From positions 13,013 to 77,012 of IMG/VR virus record IMGVR_UViG_3300032259_000002: a stretch of DNA of 64,000 bases, one strand, 5' to 3'. Source of the DNA: a virus. Its lineage: Duplodnaviria > Caudoviricetes. The translations under genes and the position numbers were made by a program. Positions 40,000-49,426 of the stretch are shown piece after piece; position 1 is the stretch's first letter, and every line of letters begins with the position of its first letter. The notes under the pieces were generated by a model that saw only the letters and a program-made list of their open reading frames with translations, made no database searches and was not told the origin of the DNA.

Positions 40000-42597
40000 C
40001 TATTCAAAATCTGTGGTATCAGCTACTAAAATTTCCTCAATATCTGCCCAATTCTCACCAACACTGACTTCCACCGCAAGAGGAACATTCACAAAATCAA
40101 AAGAAGTACAAGACATCTTTTCTGATATGATATCGATATCCTCTTCTAAAGATCTATCCGGTATAAAAAAAGATAGGTCATCATGAATGTTCATTCTTGC
40201 TTGAAACTGAGGCTTCTTCTCCTCATAAGCATATAAAGAAAGCCTGTTCATACCATCAACAACAACGTAAGAAGCCGTTCCTTGTATTGGAGCATTTATT
40301 AGTTCATTGTAACTCAAAGGGCCGACTCTTCTTGCTCCAGTTAAAGTCTCCACATATCCATGCTCATTGTAAAATTTCTGGAGCCGGCCCTGCCAATTCT
40401 TCACTCCTTTGAACTCTCCCCAAAAATCCTTTACCAATCTATCAGCCTTTTCTATAGGTAATCCCAGGGAATTAGCCACGGAAGTAAAATGAGATCCAAA
40501 AAATAAAGGAAATACCCATTCATTTTTAGATCTTTGTCTAAAATCTTTCCATCCTTTTTCATCTAACTCAGAAGACTTTCTTACCCCGGCACATCTAGGA
40601 TGGATCTTTAAAATCCTTTCCGCCCATTCCATGTGTATATCATATCCGGTCTCAATGGCATTACAAAAAGTTTTATCCTGGCTGGCCATAGCTATGATTC
40701 TTGCTTCTAGCTGACCATAGTCAACTGCAACAAACCAAAATCCTTCAGGTGGTACTATCATTCTCCTAATCTCTTTATTCTTTCTTTTAGGATAATTCTG
40801 CATATTAGGGTGTTCCGAACTTGTGCGACCGGTGGAAGTAAAGAGGTGATTGTAATCTGCATGAAGTAATCCATCCGGATAAATAACTTTATCTATTGAG
40901 TCAATATAAGTAGATTTTACTTTTGATATCTCTCTAAAATCTAAAATGAGACCTGCTTCTTTATGTCCTTTATCATTAAAGCTTTTTAAAACTTCATCAT
41001 CGGTACTATAAGATCCTTTACTCGTCTCTTTTACTGACTTCAATCCCAAAATGTCTCTAAATAAAAGAACCACTGAATCAGGAGAAGCGGGATTAAAATC
41101 ACCGAACTTTCTACCAAATTTTTTAACTGATTTAGCTTTAAAAATCTTAGCCTCTATATCCTCCAACTTCTTTTGGTATTCTTTTGAAAAACCATCCACG
41201 GTATCAAAATCAACCGGGACTCCCTCTGTTTCTGTCACAGCTAAAGTAGTAGCAGTCCTAACCAGATGATGATATGTCCATTCCTGGCTTTTATGAAGAA
41301 GAGCGTCCTGCCTTTCTTCAAGCAAATGAGTCCATTTAGTATCCATTCCATTATACAAAAGAGTTTTATCTAAAGGAGCATTTATTAAGTTTTTTCTATC
41401 CAGATCGGTAAGAGGCTTTAACTTAAAACCAAAATGTAAAAGGCATAAAACATCTAAACTAAGCATGCCTCCACTCTTTTTTGTTCTCTGATCTAAAGTG
41501 TATGCCTGGGCCATTGTATCAGCCCATATACCAGACCGCAAAGGTCTTTGTCCATAATAATGATAAAACCATATTGCCTCAAATTTAAGGTAGTGGCAGC
41601 TCTTCTTTCCCCGGCATTCCATCAAGAAATTACTTATCAAATCTTTTATAGCTTTTCTACTTTTCTCATCCCCTTTCCAAGCTTTGGGGTGATCTACCGG
41701 AAAAGCTATGGTATTTTCAAAAGTACCAATGGCTATGGTCAGAATCCAAGCATCTTTGCATCCAAAAGGTTTTAACTTATTGGTCTCTATGTCAATCGAT
41801 ACAGAAGATTCTTGTTTTAGTTTCTCCAGTTCTTTCTCAATCTTTTTAAATTCAGAAGAACTCTTTCCTTCAAAAATCTTTATACCTTTATCAAAATCTT
41901 TATCGTAAACTTTAGCCTCTGGAGAATCCTCATCCATTATAAAGAAAGCAGCTCTTTGTAAATCCATATCAAAGGCTTTTTCATATTCATTTTTAAATTT
42001 ACTATTATTCTTTTTCTTTAGTAAGGAGGGAGTTTGTATTGGAAAATACCAGCAAGTGTGATTCCCTATTTTAATCGGTAATCTTCTGCCTCGCCATTCA
42101 TCTATATTACTATAACCTATCACCCACTTTAAAGAGATGGGCCCAAGTCCGATAATGGCAAAGGGTTTTGTTTTCTGAATATCATCTTCTATTGATTTCC
42201 TACAGCACTCTATTTCTGATTCTTTAGGTTGCCTGTGTTTGGGAGTAGGGCATTGAACGCAGTAATTAAATCTAATACCTATGGTCTTGTTTAAATCTCT
42301 CTTGGATTCAAATAGATCTGGAAAGGCTCTTCTTAAGGATTTTCTTAGAACCATTCCAGATTCTCCTTTAAAGTGTATGCCCGTATCCTCTTCTCTAGGG
42401 CCGGGCATTTCTCCTAAAATATAAATCAAAGAATCAGCATCACCATCTGCTGGAACACAAGGCTCATTCACTTGATTAAGAGAACAGGCTTTGCATCCTT
42501 GCTCTCTTAAAAGATTTTTTGGTATTCTACCTAAATTTTGTTTCTTGGCTTTTTTTGTTTCTTTCTTTTTCTTATCTTCAGCAAAGAAAAATCCCAT
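40000..42597 (-). CDS. polA: Family A DNA polymerase with N-terminal uracil-DNA glycosylase-like and 3'-5' exonuclease domains
   Basis: CKAC...GEMPGPRE...ECC (family-4 UDG); DIET (ExoI); TGRTSS.HPNMQN, DYGQLEARI, RSKN..VFPLFFG, NAPIQGTA, NIHDD. Confidence 0.93.
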   Translation of the reverse strand: MGFFFAEDKKKKETKKAKKQNLGRIPKNLLREQGCKACSLNQVNEPCVPADGDADSLIYILGEMPGPREEDTGIHFKGESGMVLRKSLRRAFPDLFESKRDLNKTIGIRFNYCVQCPTPKHRQPKESEIECCRKSIEDDIQKTKPFAIIGLGPISLKWVIGYSNIDEWRGRRLPIKIGNHTCWYFPIQTPSLLKKKNNSKFKNEYEKAFDMDLQRAAFFIMDEDSPEAKVYDKDFDKGIKIFEGKSSSEFKKIEKELEKLKQESSVSIDIETNKLKPFGCKDAWILTIAIGTFENTIAFPVDHPKAWKGDEKSRKAIKDLISNFLMECRGKKSCHYLKFEAIWFYHYYGQRPLRSGIWADTMAQAYTLDQRTKKSGGMLSLDVLCLLHFGFKLKPLTDLDRKNLINAPLDKTLLYNGMDTKWTHLLEERQDALLHKSQEWTYHHLVRTATTLAVTETEGVPVDFDTVDGFSKEYQKKLEDIEAKIFKAKSVKKFGRKFGDFNPASPDSVVLLFRDILGLKSVKETSKGSYSTDDEVLKSFNDKGHKEAGLILDFREISKVKSTYIDSIDKVIYPDGLLHADYNHLFTSTGRTSSEHPNMQNYPKRKNKEIRRMIVPPEGFWFVAVDYGQLEARIIAMASQDKTFCNAIETGYDIHMEWAERILKIHPRCAGVRKSSELDEKGWKDFRQRSKNEWVFPLFFGSHFTSVANSLGLPIEKADRLVKDFWGEFKGVKNWQGRLQKFYNEHGYVETLTGARRVGPLSYNELINAPIQGTASYVVVDGMNRLSLYAYEEKKPQFQARMNIHDDLSFFIPDRSLEEDIDIISEKMSCTSFDFVNVPLAVEVSVGENWADIEEILVADTTDFE

Positions 42598-43734: not shown

Positions 43735-44820
43735 CTACTCATCTTTAAAACCCATCACTAAATGAAAAAAACTATCTGATTTTCCGGCAAGCATTGGTAT
43801 ACTATCTTCTCCGGTGGAATAACAGAATGCTATCTCGTCCACTGCTTGAAGGATGTCTAAAATATGATTGGCATCCATTCTACAAGAAATCTCTTCTTCT
43901 GAAATATCTTCTTCAAATACAATAGACTCTTTAATGGCCCCATAACCACTTTTTCCGGATACTAAAAGAGTCTCCTCCTCAGAATCAAGATGGACAATCT
44001 GATCTGTTTCTTTAGAAGTAAGTAAAGTGGTTCTTTCTATGGCAGTTAAGAGATTTTCAGGTATCTCCTGAAATTCATTTTCCTCCTCATCCCAATGAGC
44101 CTCTATGACTGCTTCATAATCAAGGTAGTCTACCTCAGTTAGAAGCTTAGTGTAAACATACACTCCCTCAAAACAAGCAAATATAAAATCCTCACTAAAA
44201 TAGAGTTCAGCAGAAGTATCATTAAGCTCCTTGCTTATATCAAGTATAAGTCTACAAAATACTTCTGGGAGAAGCATTTTAATAGATTTTTTCCCTAATG
44301 TTTTTTCAAGGGAGTATCTGGAGATTCTTTGATTATCGGTTGAATATAGATGGGCTCCCTTTTTATCAGATACAAGGGTTATTCCGAATTGATTTCTTTG
44401 TAAAGAATTTTTACTTACTGAGATGAGGGTTTTCTTTATACCCATTAAAAAATCTTCTGATAAAGTAAAAGATGGGAGATCGTCGATGTCAGGTATTTCA
44501 AAAATAAAATCAGCTTCAGGGAGGCAGGCAAGTTTAGCATTTGATTTGCCTATTTTAATATTGACCTCATTCCCTTTCTGGTTTACTGCCATTTTATCTG
44601 AGGAATAACTGCTAAGAAGTTTTATGAGAAGTTCCCCAGGAAGACCACAATTCTCAATAGTAACAGCATCCTCATAATCAATTATGATTCCCTGTATTCC
44701 GTTAAAAGCTATGATCTCTTCATCCGTAAAACAGAAATGCGATAGTATTGGTACTATGTCCTGCGTAGATAGACAAGGTCTGGCCATATTCAACTTTTCC
44801 AATAAAGACGTTCTTTCCAT
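43735..44820 (-). CDS. dnaN: Sliding clamp (DNA polymerase III beta-like)
   Basis: 361 aa; PILSHF, YSTDNQRI, DYLDYEAVI; three-domain size; clamp loader nearby. Confidence 0.8.
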   Translation of the reverse strand: MERTSLLEKLNMARPCLSTQDIVPILSHFCFTDEEIIAFNGIQGIIIDYEDAVTIENCGLPGELLIKLLSSYSSDKMAVNQKGNEVNIKIGKSNAKLACLPEADFIFEIPDIDDLPSFTLSEDFLMGIKKTLISVSKNSLQRNQFGITLVSDKKGAHLYSTDNQRISRYSLEKTLGKKSIKMLLPEVFCRLILDISKELNDTSAELYFSEDFIFACFEGVYVYTKLLTEVDYLDYEAVIEAHWDEEENEFQEIPENLLTAIERTTLLTSKETDQIVHLDSEEETLLVSGKSGYGAIKESIVFEEDISEEEISCRMDANHILDILQAVDEIAFCYSTGEDSIPMLAGKSDSFFHLVMGFKDE

Positions 44821-44872
44821 TATTTTCTCCTCACTCTTTTAGATTTATTAACAACTTTATAAATACCATTAA

Positions 44873-45019
44873 TTATATATATATAGGCAAAAAATCTGAT
44901 TGTAAAGTTTTTATAAGATGGTAGGATAAAAGCCTTTTCTTTGATTCCATTCTTGTGAGAGACTCACCGGGGCCATTTCCTTGAGTATCCTCAAGCCAGG
45001 TAGCTAAGTATATTTTCAT
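44873..45019 (-). CDS. DpdA N-terminus-like mini-gene, unit F (48 aa; truncated by a (TA)6 tract)
   Basis: MKIYLATWLEDTQGNGPGESLTRMESKKRLLSYHLIKTLQSDFLPIYI*. Removing one TA extends it to ...KSKRVRRK* with TAATG coupling to the clamp gene. Confidence 0.7.
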   Translation of the reverse strand: MKIYLATWLEDTQGNGPGESLTRMESKKRLLSYHLIKTLQSDFLPIYI

Positions 45020-45155
45020 TTATTAATTTCCTAAAAACTTTTTTATCTGATTCTTTGTAATACTGATAGCTAAATAGTATTCTGACCAAATAACTCTCTC
45101 TCTCGATGTAAGTATCTTCTTTATTTTTAAAATTTACTGATAAATATATTTTCAT
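44991..45155 (-). CDS. DpdA N-terminus-like mini-gene, unit E (54 aa, in frame)
   Basis: MKIYLSVNFKNKEDTYIERESYLVRILFSYQYYKESDKKVFRKLINENILSYLA*; G(AG)5 tract in frame. Confidence 0.7.
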   Translation of the reverse strand: MKIYLSVNFKNKEDTYIERESYLVRILFSYQYYKESDKKVFRKLINENILSYLA

Positions 45156-45325
45156 TTAATAAACCTGACAATTCCTTTTTCCACATAAAATTTAAAATCA
45201 AATCCTTTGGTAATGGAACCTACTATATATATATGAGATAAAAGTCTATGACTATTTAATACTTTTGTTAAAGTATGTCCCTGATTAATATCTGGTTCTG
45301 GCTGAGTAGCTAGATATATTTTCAT
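45152..45325 (-). CDS. DpdA N-terminus-like mini-gene, unit D (57 aa, in frame)
   Basis: MKIYLATQPEPDINQGHTLTKVLNSHRLLSHIYIVGSITKGFDFKFYVEKGIVRFIK*; (AT)5A tract in frame; ATGA-coupled at both ends. Confidence 0.72.
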   Translation of the reverse strand: MKIYLATQPEPDINQGHTLTKVLNSHRLLSHIYIVGSITKGFDFKFYVEKGIVRFIK

Positions 45326-45475
45326 TCTTCAAAAACACCATTAAGGTATTGCTTAAATAGTTTTCTAGATAGATTCCTAACATAGTAAAAAGAAATCAAA
45401 TTAGTCAGGGATTTCATAATTAAAACTCTCTCTCTGATTAGAAACTACTACATCCACTGCTAAGTATATCTTCAA
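45322..45475 (-). pseudogene. DpdA N-terminus-like mini-gene, unit C, frameshifted at (AG)5
   Basis: TTG start, LKIYLAVDVVVSNQRE; adding one AG gives ...RERVLIMKSLTNLISFYYVRNLSRKLFKQYLNGVFEE* with its stop overlapping the unit D start. Confidence 0.7.
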
Positions 45476-45631
45476 TTCTTTTCCTCTATATGTTTTAAAA
45501 TAACTTTAAAATCTTGATCAGCCATACCGCCTATTCTATGAAAATGAAAAGACAGTAACCTCTTTGACTTCTTTCTCAGAAGAAACCTCTCTCTCTTCAA
45601 TCAAACAAGTACCGGCAAAATATATTTTCAT
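45472..45631 (-). pseudogene. DpdA N-terminus-like mini-gene, unit B, frameshifted at (AG)5
   Basis: MKIYFAGTCLIEERE; adding one AG gives ...RFLLRKKSKRLLSFHFHRIGGMADQDFKVILKHIEEKN* overlapping the unit C start. Confidence 0.72.
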
Positions 45632-45800
45632 TACTTATCTCTTTTATAATCTATTATAACTAGTAAACTTTTTTTCATTTTATTAGAAGTTAGGAAATGA
45701 TCTGCAAAACTGAATAATCTAGAATATTTAAATTTTAATAACAACTCTCTCTTCCATCAACATTCATGATAGAATAACCACCTGCTAAATATATTTTCAA
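45631..45800 (-). pseudogene. DpdA N-terminus-like mini-gene, unit A, frameshifted at (AG)4
   Basis: TTG start overlaps the dpdA stop; LKIYLAGGYSIMNVDGRE; (AG)3 or (AG)6 gives ...LLLKFKYSRLFSFADHF...YKRDK* with TAATG coupling to unit B. Confidence 0.7.
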
Positions 45801-46597
45801 AAGAAATTACCTCTCAGTAAAGATCTATTGAAAGGCCTATCTGGAAGGTACTTTTCAAGATCAAGAAAATAAATAATATTAAGCTCATCTCTTTTTTTAT
45901 AATCAGCAGAAAGCTCTTCGTAGTTATAGCCCTTTTCCTCGAAATAATGGAGAATATGGTCTTGGACTATTTTTGAATAATTAGAAAAATGCTGGCCTTC
46001 TATACCAGCTTTGGGAGATTTATCAGATACCACTACCTTATGTGGTATTTTTGAAAAATCGTAACCATCTCTATTTCTGATAGGAACTATGACCGAGCCG
46101 AAGCGGCCGGTCTTTACCCAAGAAGTACTATCAACAGAAAACCAAGGATAGCGGAGAAGTATCTTCAGTGAGGTAACTCCAAAGCCATGTATCTTACAAA
46201 CAGGCCAGCCTTCTTGATCAGTCAGATACTTAGCAAATAAACCGTCCAGCCAGGGCATCAACTTTTTGCCCGGAGTCCCCACCATACCACCAAGGGCTAT
46301 GTAATCGTATCCCTCTTCTAAATATTTTTTAAGGTATTTTATATCGGTATTAAAATGAAAACAAGGTAGTGGATTCAATCCTTTTTTCTCAAGGTATTTT
46401 TGATTCTTATAAGTGGCTTCCGGATCTCCAATCACATCAAGATTGGCATACACTGTTAAATACTTTTTGTACTCTTTAATAAAATCAGCATATTCATCTA
46501 TACTTATTTCAATACCTTTTGACCAAGCAGAGAAAGCACCACTATCAAGAAATAAATCTACTTTATTTTCTGACTTATCACTTCTTCTTTTTCTCAT
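45797..46597 (-). CDS. dpdA: DpdA-like DNA 7-deazaguanine transglycosylase (TGT fold), lacking the usual N-terminal segment
   Basis: LFLDSGAFSAWSKG, NLDVIGD, PCFH, YIALGGMVG, KIHGFG, FSVDSTSW; directly after queC. Confidence 0.85.
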   Translation of the reverse strand: MRKRRSDKSENKVDLFLDSGAFSAWSKGIEISIDEYADFIKEYKKYLTVYANLDVIGDPEATYKNQKYLEKKGLNPLPCFHFNTDIKYLKKYLEEGYDYIALGGMVGTPGKKLMPWLDGLFAKYLTDQEGWPVCKIHGFGVTSLKILLRYPWFSVDSTSWVKTGRFGSVIVPIRNRDGYDFSKIPHKVVVSDKSPKAGIEGQHFSNYSKIVQDHILHYFEEKGYNYEELSADYKKRDELNIIYFLDLEKYLPDRPFNRSLLRGNFF

Positions 46598-46631: not shown

Positions 46632-47324
46632 CTAATCCCTTTCAAAAAGAGGGTCTTCGATGCCAGCATGATCAAAACCTTTTTGTCTGAGCAGACAAGC
46701 ATGGCAGTGACCACATGGAGGATATTGCCCATTATAGCAGGTATGAGAATAGGCCAAGGCTTCCATACAGCCTTCAAGCTTACAGGCTAAATCCACTGAA
46801 TCCCTTTTGGTCATAAACATTAAAGGGGTATGTATATCAAAGACAAAATCAGAACCATAAATACCTTCCCCAAGAGCTTTAGTCATAGCCACTATAAAAG
46901 TATGCCGGCAATCATGGTAGCCTGCAAAGTCCTCTTGACAAACTCCGGTTACCATATCAGTTATACCAAGACAGGCCGCTCGGTTAGCAGCTATAGTCAG
47001 AAAAAGAATATTCCTGGCTGGAACAAAAGTTGGCTCTACCCCTTCTGGTAATTCTTCATGAGATGGGTATTGACCTACTTCATAATCACTATTTACAAGA
47101 GGGCTGGTTCCTTTAAGAACTGGGCCCAACTCAATGACCTCATGACTTGCTACCCCTGCCATTTTTGCTATCTTTTTAGCAGACTCTAACTCAATAGAGT
47201 GTTTCTGACCATAATCAAAAGTAACGGCATGGACTTCATCAAATTTACTTTTAGCCCAGAATAGGCAAGTTGTGGAATCCTGGCCACCGCTCAAAACAAC
47301 AAGGCATTTGCTCTTCTCTTTCAT
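46632..47324 (-). CDS. queC: 7-cyano-7-deazaguanine synthase
   Basis: LSGGQDSTTC, FDYGQKH, TFVPARN, YHDCR, TPLM, SHTCY...CGHCHAC. Confidence 0.97.
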   Translation of the reverse strand: MKEKSKCLVVLSGGQDSTTCLFWAKSKFDEVHAVTFDYGQKHSIELESAKKIAKMAGVASHEVIELGPVLKGTSPLVNSDYEVGQYPSHEELPEGVEPTFVPARNILFLTIAANRAACLGITDMVTGVCQEDFAGYHDCRHTFIVAMTKALGEGIYGSDFVFDIHTPLMFMTKRDSVDLACKLEGCMEALAYSHTCYNGQYPPCGHCHACLLRQKGFDHAGIEDPLFERD

Positions 47325-47341: not shown

Positions 47342-48148
47342 TTATAATTTTATTAAAGACATCAACTCTGCTCTAGCAGCAATGCCTTTTTGGCTATCAT
47401 CTTTAAACACCCCAGTAAGAGCGGAGGTGGTCATTATTGAGCCCTGTTTCTCCACTCCCCGCGAAGTCATGCAAAAATGTTGGGCCTCAATAATACAAGC
47501 AGCACCTATACACTTAAGATTCTCCATTAAGGCATTTACCGCTTGTTTTCCTATTCTTTCCTGTATCTGAAGCCTTCTACTAAAAATTTCAAAAAGTCTT
47601 GCAAGTTTAGATACTCCAATTACTTTCTCATTTGGAATATAAGCTAAGTGAAAGCGACCAAAAAACGGCAACAGGTGATGCTCACAAGTAGAATAAAACT
47701 CACAATTTTTAAGGAGTACCAACTCGTCATACCCTTCCGAATCAAAAACCTTGAATACTTCTTTGGGATCTAATTTGTAACCAGAAAAAAGATGGTCGTA
47801 AGACTTAAGTACTCTTTCCGGAGTCTCAAGAAGTCCCTCCCTTTCCGGATCATCTCCAAGATAGGAAATGGTAGCTCTCACATTCCTTAATAGGGCTTCT
47901 TTGTATAAGGAGGCATCTCCATCTACTGATAAGAATCTCCATTTCTTCTTATCCAAGGATCTTCTTATTAGATTTTTCTCTCTTTTCTCATAATAACCAA
48001 AAGCAACATTAGTTAACCTATCTACTCCTATAAGACAAAAGGTTTCTCCTACACCACCAGAAGGTACTCTTTGGGCTACTTTTATAGGAAAATTCTCTGA
48101 TGCGTGTCCCCGTCTTTCTAACCAAATATCCTCTAAACTCTTTTCCAT
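47342..48148 (-). CDS. folE: GTP cyclohydrolase I with an ~80-aa N-terminal extension
   Basis: GDDPEREGLLETPERV, YSTCEHHLLPF, GVSKLAR, RRLQIQER, HFCMTSRG. Confidence 0.96.
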   Translation of the reverse strand: MEKSLEDIWLERRGHASENFPIKVAQRVPSGGVGETFCLIGVDRLTNVAFGYYEKREKNLIRRSLDKKKWRFLSVDGDASLYKEALLRNVRATISYLGDDPEREGLLETPERVLKSYDHLFSGYKLDPKEVFKVFDSEGYDELVLLKNCEFYSTCEHHLLPFFGRFHLAYIPNEKVIGVSKLARLFEIFSRRLQIQERIGKQAVNALMENLKCIGAACIIEAQHFCMTSRGVEKQGSIMTTSALTGVFKDDSQKGIAARAELMSLIKL

Positions 48149-48168: not shown

Positions 48169-48594
48169 TTATTCCCAAGGGAAAACTATCCATCTATCAG
48201 CCGGCATTTCTTCAACAAAAAAAGAAGGCTCACATCTGGTAGAAGATTTTCGATAAACAACAGCTGAATCCTCAAAACCAAGATTGTTTATATAATTAAG
48301 AGTACCGCCTGAATCAACAAGATCATCAACTACCAAAAAATCAGTAGGTATTGTTTCTATATTATTGTGCTGAATCAGCTCTTGCCTTTTTTTACAAGAG
48401 GAATATGATTCAAGGCATAGAGTTTGAACATTTCTTATATTAAGTAGATGCGAAATAATTCCTGCCACAAATAAACCACCTCTTGTAACAGCAAGTATTC
48501 CTGGAATTACTGCTCGGTCTTCTGCTATTTTATTAGCAAGTATTCTGCAATCTTCTTCGAACTGGTTCCAAGTTACTACCAATTTATTTTCCAA
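48169..48594 (-). CDS. Purine phosphoribosyltransferase (Gpt/Hpt-like)
   Basis: LAVTRGGL, FLVVDDLVDSGGT PRPP loop, WIVFPWE. Confidence 0.9.
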   Translation of the reverse strand: MENKLVVTWNQFEEDCRILANKIAEDRAVIPGILAVTRGGLFVAGIISHLLNIRNVQTLCLESYSSCKKRQELIQHNNIETIPTDFLVVDDLVDSGGTLNYINNLGFEDSAVVYRKSSTRCEPSFFVEEMPADRWIVFPWE

Positions 48595-48661: not shown

Positions 48662-49426
48662 TTAACCGTTAATCTCTTCAAGAATCTTCATAATGGCGTG
48701 AGCCTGACCATACTGTATACCGAGAGTGCTTGGACTGATGGTGTAGCCTTCCTTGGCAACTTTCTCTCCAATCTTCTCTTTATCCCACTTTGGGTGCTTG
48801 CAGGTATAGTACTGAATACGTGAAATGGCCGAAGGCTTTTTGTCTTTCTTTTCCTTCTTAGGCTTTTTCTCAGCCTTACCCTTACCTTTAGACTTGCCCT
48901 TCTTGGCAGGCTTTTCTTCTTCCTCTTCCTCTTCCTCAGGGTCTTCCTCAGGCTCGGATTTTTTGGATTTTTTCCCTTTAGAAGAAGACTTGCCCTTACC
49001 TTTAGACTTGCCCTTCTTTGCAGGCTTTTCCTCTTCCTCTTCTTCAGGGTCTTCCTCTTCCTCTTCTTCAGGGTCTTCCTCTTCCTCTTCTTCAGGGTCT
49101 TCCTCTTCCTCTTCTTCAGGGTCTTCCTCTTCCTCAGGCTCGGATTTTTTGGATTTTTTGCCTTTAGACTTGCCCTTCTTTGCAGGCTTTTCCTCTTCCT
49201 CTTCATCAGATTCCGAATCAGGGAAATCAGCAACAGCCTTGTTCTTCTCAAGAGCACTTACGGCTTTATTCAGCCAATCTTGGGCCTCTTTAGAAAGACC
49301 ATCAAACTTCTTGTCAGAAAGATCGTCTGACTCGTCTGCCAGCCTTTCAAGATATTCCTGGTAATCCTCTCCTTTGTTTTGTTTAATCTTGATAGCCTTT
49401 TCCAGTTCTTTTCTTATAACACTCAT
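48662..49426 (-). CDS. Highly charged protein with tandem DPEEEEEE and KPAKKGKSKGK repeats
   Basis: 24-bp tandem repeats at about 49030-49135; AGGAGG RBS. Confidence 0.75.
   Translation of the reverse strand: MSVIRKELEKAIKIKQNKGEDYQEYLERLADESDDLSDKKFDGLSKEAQDWLNKAVSALEKNKAVADFPDSESDEEEEEKPAKKGKSKGKKSKKSEPEEEEDPEEEEEEDPEEEEEEDPEEEEEEDPEEEEEEKPAKKGKSKGKGKSSSKGKKSKKSEPEEDPEEEEEEEEKPAKKGKSKGKGKAEKKPKKEKKDKKPSAISRIQYYTCKHPKWDKEKIGEKVAKEGYTISPSTLGIQYGQAHAIMKILEEING

Follow-up and report, generated by a model that had tools for sequence, protein, structure and literature searches.

In the 64,000-nucleotide stretch of Caudoviricetes DNA analysed here (the window), a short dpdA gene is followed by six small units arranged head to tail (44873-45800). 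Genes for preQ0 synthesis, queC and folE, lie directly upstream in the same orientation, and all the features under study are on the minus strand (Table 1). By sequence profile the 266-aa product belongs to the phage DpdA family (phrog_887, E 6.6e-63; phrog_7068, E 1e-33), and tblastn with it matched 244 phage records. The phrog_887 match covers only profile positions 50-280, indicating that the N-terminal segment is absent, and the DpdA proteins of cultured relatives have ~45 additional N-terminal residues. Just 14 residues precede the LFLDSGAF motif, the open frame continues upstream for only 3 more codons (to 46606), and the end of queC at 46632 leaves a gap of 34 nt; there is therefore no space for an N-terminal extension. 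Three aspartates (D18 in LDSG, D54 in NLDV and D156 in SVDSTSW) are invariant across 24 close relatives and, by motif position rather than residue-level structural alignment, would correspond to the general acid, base-binding and nucleophilic residues of SmDpdA (Asp95, Asp130 and Asp256).

Table 1. Genes, units and dinucleotide tracts of the dpdA locus, in window coordinates. Pfam identifiers are those in the record of contig L086.
Feature	Coordinates	Strand	Remarks
Purine phosphoribosyltransferase gene	48169-48594	minus	ORF; PF00156 recorded on identical contig L086
folE	47342-48148	minus	ORF; PF01227 recorded on identical contig L086
queC	46632-47324	minus	ORF; PF06508 recorded on identical contig L086
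dpdA (short-form core, 266 aa)	45797-46597	minus	phrog_887 profile match, invariant Asp, AF2 model
Unit A	45631-45800	minus	AGG..MNV.GRE..RLFSF type; TTG start in TTGA, overlaps dpdA stop
Unit A tract, (AG)4	45745-45752		out of frame; restored by loss of one GA unit or gain of two
Unit B	45472-45631	minus	ATG start, TAATG junction
Unit B tract, (AG)5	45587-45596		out of frame; restored by gain of one GA unit
Unit C	45322-45475	minus	TTG start, TTGA junction; most divergent unit
Unit C tract, (AG)5	45426-45435		out of frame; restored by gain of one GA unit
Unit D	45152-45325	minus	intact ORF, 57 aa; ATQ/ATW type; ATGA junction
Unit D tract, (AT)5A	45224-45234		unit intact
Unit E	44991-45155	minus	intact ORF, 54 aa; RE type; ATGA junction
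Unit E tract, (GA)5G	45094-45104		in frame, encodes ERES
Unit F	44873-45019	minus	intact ORF, 48 aa; ATW type; start 29 nt inside E
Unit F tract, (TA)6	44874-44885		runs into stop codon

A sequence-only reading of the locus had described an N-truncated DpdA-like ORF, with queC too near for any upstream N-terminal segment, followed by six mini-genes of 50-60 aa that share a start and a second motif and overlap one another. The truncation and the gene context are as it stated. All six units begin with [M/L]KIY[LF][AS] and carry an RL(L/F)S(F/Y/H)-like motif, the starts of A to E overlap the preceding stop, and F begins inside E. The count of six also stands, with the qualification that three-frame translation gives continuous ORFs for D, E and F only; A, B and C each shift frame at an (AG)n tract, and their lengths are those of restored units. 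A 22-nt start box occurs five times in the array, and intact counterparts of unit A lie directly after dpdA in two related loci (L003 and L005).

Three other accounts of the array were rejected. The units are only 30-40% identical to one another and fall into different conserved subtypes, which is at odds with recent tandem duplication. An alternative genetic code is contradicted by the TAA that ends the N-terminal half of unit A and by the integrity of D to F under table 11. Circular permutation, in which a module would be read through onto the C-terminus of the core, would require a -1 shift at a junction with no good slippery site, and no module-like motif was present after residue 150 in any of the DpdA homologues examined.

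Homology of the units to the missing barrel segment

The AF2 model of the window core is confident (pLDDT 83.4) and contains six barrel strands, strands 3-8; nothing fills the place of strands 1 and 2. In the model of a long-form relative, P0006, strands at residues 2-6 and 23-27 precede the FLDSG strand (51-55), giving eight barrel strands in all, although the N-terminal module itself is modelled at a pLDDT of only 53-77. P0006 superimposes on Z. mobilis TGT with Z 18.8 (255 aa, 3.2 A), its residue 1 aligning with TGT residue 40, and on the bacterial DpdA of S. Montevideo (PDB 7ui4) with Z 18.6, whereas the core scores Z 12.6 against TGT. PDB sequence searches with the core gave a marginal match to 7ui4 only (E 0.19), so the link to the TGT/DpdA fold rests on fold comparison. 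As modelled, then, the window ORF is a DpdA without its first two barrel strands: it is of the same fold family as the single-chain, eight-stranded (beta/alpha)8 barrel of TGT, with an incomplete chain.

We compared the units with the segment that the core lacks, using an HMM built from the N-termini of fused DpdAs alone, with no window sequence included. The best seven matches in the window all fell within 44876-45806, placing the correspondence of the array beyond chance. This HMM matched D (E 3e-4), F (E 6e-4) and B, and a second HMM value for F was 1.5e-12. Unit E scored 5.4e-6, the N- and C-terminal halves of B scored 1e-3 and 6e-6, and both halves of A were matched; for C, the C-terminal half scored 0.022 and the N-terminal half was recognised by eye only (LKIYLAV). 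Aligned by hhalign, the units and the N-terminal segment of long-form DpdA paired N-terminus to N-terminus (93.4%, E 2.5e-7), and unit D shares 45% identity with the N-terminal segment fused in P0098 (E 3e-8). Modules retain the two-strand pattern of the fused enzymes, with strand-end residues conserved likewise, and in 28 modules of the ATW family, whose alignment includes unit F, M1, T7, R27, L28 and S30 are invariant. By profile comparison, the units are thus homologues of the beta1-loop-beta2 N-terminal segment of long-form DpdA, the very segment missing from the core.

Distribution and conservation of free modules

We examined 72 non-redundant related phage loci for free modules within 4 kb of dpdA. 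Every short-form DpdA (22/22) had at least one intact free module, with a mean of 2.5, and 24 of the 30 loci with a long-form DpdA had free modules as well. The first downstream module begins at the stop codon of the core in 43/61 loci, with an exact 4-nt overlap in 33 of those 43. Long-form genes keep an internal Met at the position of the short-form start in 23/24 loci with free modules versus 1/6 without (p 2.4e-4). Among the closest orthologue pairs the modules have dN/dS values of 0.19-0.25, and distinct module subtypes persist even between loci with cores of only 40-50% identity. The family is large: an ATW profile alone recovered 368 cluster representatives, nearly all of them stand-alone proteins of 46-80 aa. 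These comparisons indicate that many phages conserve the arrangement under purifying selection, and that the split architecture is common among uncultivated phages as represented by their contigs, which derive from aquatic and sediment samples.

Two points of the sequence-only reading, that the units correspond to DpdA N-termini and that the core lacks the first barrel elements, are borne out by these results, and N-truncated DpdAs beside mini-ORFs, for which it proposed a search, do occur in other phages. Its view of the modules as a missing piece holds in part. They do represent the missing segment, but their presence beside so many complete enzymes means that they are more than a patch for truncation. 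A simple missing-piece model does not require free modules beside long-form DpdAs.

Several features of the census bear on whether the core needs the modules at all. It could be a self-sufficient six-stranded enzyme, or a homo-oligomer, with the small proteins related to the DpdA N-terminus by descent only and engaged in something else, for example DNA binding or anti-defence. Among DpdA homologues short forms are very common, and the core is modelled confidently without the segment, as such an enzyme would be. We nevertheless regard this as unlikely, given the tight start-stop linkage, the invariable co-occurrence of short forms with intact modules, the retention of the internal Met only where free modules exist, the preservation in modules of the two-strand pattern of fused enzymes, and the empty place of strands 1 and 2 in the core model. 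The small proteins might instead bind at the position of strands 1 and 2, on the core or else on a host DpdA or TGT, and serve as regulators or decoys that keep the enzyme inactive or control when it acts. Their homology to the N-terminal segment would be as natural in a competitor as in a partner, free modules do accompany complete enzymes, and many modules are off in the assemblies. Yet short-form cores, which miss the two strands, always come with an intact module, strand-end residues are conserved as in fused enzymes, and a core supplied with inhibitors but no completing piece would be useless, which is hard to reconcile with invariant catalytic aspartates; we consider a regulatory role rather unlikely.

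The family is invisible to standard annotation because its genes encode fewer than 60 aa and match neither Pfam nor PHROG: a Pfam search of the core and units D-F gave no useful match, and a PHROG search of the units gave none. A tblastn search of 50,697 phage records with one ATW module found no match, and at eight cultured-phage dpdA loci the module HMM detected fused N-termini only, with no free modules. Absence from the cultured phages examined would explain the lack of an earlier description, and our literature search found no paper joining DpdA with phase variation, split forms or small subunits.

Dinucleotide repeats and module reading frames

Each of the six units contains a dinucleotide tract, a short one of 4-6 repeat units, and the only two TA tracts of at least 10 nt in the whole window are those of D and F. 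Across 726 kb, GA tracts of at least 10 nt number 32 in modules and 5 outside, an enrichment of ~110-fold (p 2e-35), so that repeats inside the reading frame stand above background in modules as they do in contingency genes. GA tracts of at least 8 nt, and up to 19 nt, are present in 13 of 22 split modules. Frame-changing differences in tract length between close relatives, a second hallmark of contingency loci, were found among four related contigs (L011, L012, L013 and L032): the same GA tract measures 17, 11, 17 and 19 nt, a poly-C tract 9, 8 and 7 in three of the four, and a poly-G tract 9, 8, 8 and 8 in all four, and both homopolymer differences turn individual modules on or off. In none of the four contigs is the fusable module on, and its off state could be decoded in some other way or tolerated. 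For the window phage itself, a second assembly (L086, ENA) is identical over 6.8 kb and at every tract, with no length difference, and gapped pattern scans across the unit B tract in IMG/VR and JGI metagenomes returned no other contig and no length variants.

It is conceivable that A, B and C are expressed in spite of their broken frames, if ribosomes undergo programmed frameshifting at the GA tract or transcription slips there, which would yield a fixed ratio of products and no heritable switch. The finding of the same module out of frame in all four related contigs, with breaks at one conserved site, would fit recoding of this type. The units, however, need different shifts (-2 or +4 nt for A, +2 or -4 nt for B and C), and tract lengths vary between close relatives; together these are the signature of slippage at the DNA level. 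Nor, to our knowledge, are GA repeats established as a signal for recoding through efficient slippage, and we judge recoding to be quite improbable.

A more sceptical interpretation is that duplicated pieces of the dpdA 5' end are decaying in the array, that the frameshifts are assembly or sequencing errors, and that the array has no function. Three of the six units are broken, all are short, and homopolymer and repeat lengths are error-prone on some sequencing platforms. Decay or error would, however, hardly produce the low dN/dS values, the maintenance of subtypes across divergent cores, hundreds of cluster representatives called as small genes, two assemblies that agree, or breaks at repeats that are so strongly enriched in modules. 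We therefore assign it a very low probability.

A model for trans-completion of the barrel and its relation to known systems

On balance, we favor a model in which the modules act as exchangeable subunits, each completing the barrel in trans and bringing with it the DNA-contact loops Ins1 and Ins2, and in which slippage at the repeats switches them. DpdA, which exchanges guanine for 7-deazaguanine in DNA, would be encoded as a core together with a set of alternative small subunits. The core would supply barrel strands 3-8 and the three catalytic aspartates, and each 48-57-aa module would contribute strands 1 and 2, the variable loop Ins1 between them and the beginning of Ins2. Produced from the operon that also encodes the core, with its start overlapping the preceding stop, a module would dock on the core and close the eight-stranded barrel. 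Slippage by one repeat unit would turn a module on or off, the assembly representing a state with three modules on (D, E and F) and three off (A, B and C). The comparisons establish the truncation, the homology and structural position of the modules, their conservation, selection and linkage, the enrichment of repeats and the differences in repeat length between related phages; that modules bind the core, restore its activity, alter its specificity and are switched in the population of the window phage is what we infer.

The DpdA structure paper links the Ins1 and Ins2 loops to DNA binding and possibly to sequence recognition. Since both loops would lie on the DNA-binding face, beside the active site, different modules should differ in their contact with DNA and perhaps in the guanines that are replaced. 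A more tentative extension, which we find possible but doubtful, is that each module sets its own sequence context for 7-deazaguanine insertion, and that random slippage, by choosing among modules, generates progeny with different modification patterns.

The closest known counterparts of the window system are the DpdA1-type enzymes of cultured phages (Queuovirinae such as Pseudomonas phage JG054, Seuratvirus phage GottfriedDienst, and gp31 of Burkholderia phage BcepGomr; phrog_887), to which the core is 41-45% identical over ~230 residues. The FLDSGAF, GGMV and PW.SVDS motifs are shared, and in both cases the neighbouring genes include those for preQ0 synthesis, the sliding clamp and DNA polymerase. 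In those phages DpdA is one chain of 306-312 aa that includes the N-module, and free modules are absent within 2.5 kb, whereas in the window the module is missing from the enzyme gene and is present as six separate gene copies. Bacterial DpdA and TGT share the TIM barrel with the long-form relative, and their general-acid and nucleophile aspartate positions match by motif. According to the structure paper, bacterial DpdA requires DpdB and ATP and has a large Ins8 and a zinc site, CXCX2CX22H; the 266-aa window core contains no CXC motif, and so does not share this site. No split form has been described for bacterial DpdA or TGT.

The proposed switch has precedents in bacteria. Mycoplasma mod genes use AG repeats for phase variation (PMC3498834), and in Type III mod phasevarions repeats within the gene turn a DNA-modification function on and off, as we suggest for the modules. 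In Type I systems, HsdS is an interchangeable subunit that determines the DNA target of an otherwise unchanged catalytic part, much as modules might. These systems are bacterial, act through methylation, and switch the whole enzyme or recombine target-recognition domains; in the window, by contrast, a virus would employ base exchange and the variable part would be a piece of the catalytic barrel itself.

DpdA shields phage DNA from restriction enzymes and Cas9, and the reasons for which its target motifs differ between phages are not yet understood. If an exchangeable piece of 50 residues bears the DNA-contact loops, it would offer a direct handle on the choice of guanines by DpdA, as well as a simple way of testing the choice and directing it elsewhere. 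Should the repeats be switches, phage DNA modification would vary in a heritable and reversible way so far known only from bacterial methyltransferases, and if the specificity reading is also true the system would be a viral counterpart of bacterial phasevarions. Such variation could serve as a hedge between two kinds of host defence: restriction enzymes, which modification blocks, and modification-dependent systems, which it sets off.

Assembly of (beta/alpha)8 barrels from separate pieces is familiar from the laboratory, where fragments of HisF (as halves), TIM and PRAI complement one another. The proposed DpdA assembly resembles these cases, which are, however, engineered or two-half systems; we know of no natural split of two plus six strands that is served by a family of alternative two-strand pieces. 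If our model is correct, this would be the first natural enzyme with a catalytic TIM barrel completed by a choice of alternative subunits, and for protein science it would provide a natural catalytic barrel in which one fixed six-strand part is combined with a repertoire of two-strand parts.

A short DpdA gene followed by six small units

The window was taken from a 77-kb IMG/VR virus record. Genes of this region are all encoded on the minus strand: a purine phosphoribosyltransferase, then folE and queC, and next the DpdA-like gene. A stretch of about 930 nt that lacks a long ORF separates this gene from those for a sliding clamp, a C5 DNA methyltransferase and a family-A DNA polymerase, in that order. 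The best-supported reading of the locus, which predicts the binding, activity and specificity of its parts, is an enzyme in two parts: a catalytic core of six strands would stay constant, and one of several modules, each with two strands and carrying the loop insertions Ins1 and Ins2, would complete it in trans. Module expression would be toggled by repeat slippage.

The phrog_887 match of the 266-aa DpdA begins only at profile position 50. Cultured relatives, from Pseudomonas phage JG054 (312 aa) and Escherichia phage GottfriedDienst (306 aa), are longer at the N-terminus by about 45 residues (MNIFMAA...HILESYHY..., followed by VFLDSGAF). Upstream of the ATG the open frame continues for only three codons, and just 34 nt separate the gene from queC, so the missing N-terminus cannot lie there, as the sequence-only reading had held. 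Three-frame translation of the kilobase after dpdA, which lacks a long ORF, revealed six head-to-tail units. The earlier description of a six-unit array was thus correct, except that half of the units (A, B and C) are not continuous ORFs. Loss of one GA unit would restore the frame of unit A, and gain of one would restore those of B and C. The start codons of units A to E overlap the stop codon of the gene or unit before (TTGA, TAATG, TTGA, ATGA, ATGA), unit F starts 29 nt within unit E, and the only TA tracts of at least 10 nt in the 64-kb window are those of units D and F.

Coordinates of the DpdA-like gene and the downstream units in the window
Feature	Position	Strand	Properties
DpdA-like ORF	45797-46597	-	266 aa; phrog_887 match E 6.6e-63
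Unit A	45800-45631	-	out of frame; repeat (AG)4
Unit B	45631-45472	-	out of frame; repeat (AG)5
Unit C	45475-45322	-	out of frame; repeat (AG)5
Unit D	45325-45152	-	intact, 57 aa; repeat (AT)5A
Unit E	45155-44991	-	intact, 54 aa; repeat (GA)5G, read in frame
Unit F	45019-44873	-	intact, 48 aa; repeat (TA)6

Three neighboring genes also deserve mention. The DNA polymerase (865 aa; 40000-42597, minus strand) has a uracil-DNA-glycosylase-like domain at its N-terminus, and this PF03167 plus PF00476 architecture is identical in related contigs, beside the same dpdA block. The 141-aa phosphoribosyltransferase (PF00156; 48169-48594, minus strand) within the folE-queC-dpdA operon might salvage guanine after its release or act on the 7-deazaguanine base; in two related loci, L003 and L005, it is adjacent or fused to folE. 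A gene just ahead of the modification operon (48662-49426, minus strand) encodes a 254-aa protein of low complexity and extreme charge, in which long EEEEDPEEEE runs alternate with KKGKSKGK repeats.

Relation of the units to the DpdA N-terminus

The units are almost certainly homologous to the N-terminal segment of DpdA. An HMM trained solely on 31 fused DpdA N-termini was run against all six-frame segments of the window and related loci, and its seven best window matches all fell within the array (E-values of 3e-4 for unit D, 6e-4 for unit F and 8e-3 for the first half of unit B). In profile-profile comparison, a profile of 28 free D/F-type ('ATW') modules aligned with one of long-form DpdAs, N-terminus on N-terminus (93.4% probability, E 2.5e-7); the fused N-terminus of the homologue P0098 and unit D share 45% identity over 38 residues (E 3e-8). 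The resemblance to DpdA N-termini that was originally proposed is borne out by these alignments.

In the AF2 model of P0006 (pLDDT 84.8), the closest long-form relative (64% identical to the window core), the N-terminal segment forms a strand (2-6), a short helix, a second strand (23-27) and helices, followed by the FLDSG strand (51-55). In structural alignment, residue 1 of this model matches Z. mobilis TGT residue 40 (Z 18.8, 255 residues, 3.2 Å); against DpdA 7ui4, Z is 18.6. Modelled alone, the window core has six barrel strands with the first two positions empty (Z 12.6 vs TGT), consistent with the incomplete barrel postulated earlier. Together, these models indicate that the module corresponds to β1, the β1/α1 loop, β2 and the start of the β2/α2 loop. 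The S. Montevideo DpdA counterparts of these two loops are called Ins1 and Ins2: the former builds the DNA-binding surface together with Ins8, and the latter, like Ins3, flanks the active site and may with it help sequence recognition (PMC10164549). In the units, Ins1 is the hypervariable part that links MKIYLA to RLLSY.

We consider it somewhat probable that the modules bind the core and complete an active enzyme in trans; that they alter its sequence context is a more tentative suggestion. Rival explanations cast the modules as regulators or decoys, or hold that the core works by itself and that they serve another purpose. The core's sequence, catalytic motifs and genomic neighborhood place it in the phage DpdA1-like family, but its single chain is modelled with six barrel strands rather than eight; since it lacks the Zn motif, it is not a bacterial Dpd-system DpdA. 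In function the core/module arrangement recalls the HsdS specificity subunits of Type I systems and the repeat-switched mod genes, but it is viral, uses base-exchange chemistry and places the variable part within the catalytic fold. Our literature searches found no account of a split DpdA, of free N-modules or of phase variation in DpdA.

Modules in related phages

Many of the 120 best homologues are short-form DpdAs. When 80 IMG/VR loci and contigs of close homologues were scanned with a module HMM, counting free modules within 4 kb in 72 non-redundant loci, at least one intact module accompanied dpdA in all 22 short-form loci (mean 2.5, up to 5), so the anticipated pairing of N-truncated DpdAs with small module genes does recur in viral sequences. 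Free modules were also found in 24 of 30 long-form loci; in the cultured phages examined (Queuovirinae, BcepGomr, Achromobacter ART, Vibrio, Rhizobium) the fused form alone was found. In 23 of 24 loci with free modules, vs only one of six without, long-form genes retain a Met that precedes the LFLD motif by 7-16 residues (Fisher p 2.4e-4). This Met is where short forms start, and several are preceded by a Shine-Dalgarno-like sequence, which suggests that long-form genes may also yield core-only protein by internal initiation; this would account for free modules beside complete enzymes.

Recurring subtypes include ATW..QG.SLTK..RLLSYFH, TAPGNE, AGG..VMNVKGRE, AGTPGT.REREWQ and AGVPGGG, usually with one module of each per locus; they are old paralogues rather than fresh duplicates. 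Both L003 and L005 have an intact counterpart of unit A directly after dpdA, followed in L003 by a counterpart of unit F. Of 61 loci, 43 have a first downstream module that starts at the core stop codon (a 4-nt overlap in 33), the usual layout for co-translated subunits. Closest orthologue pairs have dN/dS of 0.19-0.25, M1, T7, R27, L28 and S30 are invariant across the 28 ATW modules, and an ATW profile search of 1.84 billion proteins returned 368 cluster representatives, nearly all stand-alone, 46-80 aa long and matched from residue 1. The module family is very probably functional.

L019 (3728-4891) encodes a single ORF with two tandem N-modules before the core (MKIYIAAESN..., then MKLYLAGTTV...), without free modules or an internal Met before LFLD, and L073 (1935-3805) has tandem DpdA cores followed by one ATW module. 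C-terminal extensions occur on ATW modules of L040 (4831-5082; a Cys-rich, zinc-ribbon-like tail, CDLCD...CIVCK) and L024 (5512-5853; 113 aa). The closest relative with context, the P0005 contig (Logan SRR31656004; core 68% identical), keeps the PF00156 gene in place and has a DUF6884 gene before dpdA; a 267-aa gene of no known family follows, then three ORFs of 54-65 aa that are probably modules.

Repeat tracts and phase variation

In 726 kb of locus sequence, module regions (5.5% of the total) contain 32 GA/AG tracts of at least 10 nt vs 5 outside, three of which lie right at dpdA starts (~110-fold enrichment, p 2e-35). That the array represents decay plus assembly error is the least likely explanation, as both this enrichment and selection on the modules count against it. 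A GA tract of at least 8 nt (up to 19 nt) occurs in 13 of 22 modules split between two frames, and some others break at poly-C or poly-G runs. In four related contigs with largely conserved dpdA (L011, L012, L013 and L032), one GA tract measures 17, 11, 17 and 19 nt, and none of the four has the corresponding module in frame; a poly-G tract measures 9, 8, 8 and 8 nt, its module being intact only in L011; and a poly-C tract common to three measures 9, 8 and 7 nt, its module being intact only in L013. Such differences have the pattern of slipped-strand phase variation, which is known in bacterial Type III mod genes, some with AG repeats (PMC3498834). A rival reading has out-of-frame units decoded by recoding. 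We regard the repeats as likely heritable switches. All tracts are identical between the window phage and its second assembly, L086, and pattern scans of IMG/VR and JGI metagenomes for the unit B tract found no length variants of the window phage tract.

Reported DpdA target motifs of relatives include GA (phage iggy, PMC10484667). If the window DpdA also targets GA, the GA tracts in its own module genes (44874-45752, and in related loci) would be dense arrays of modification sites.
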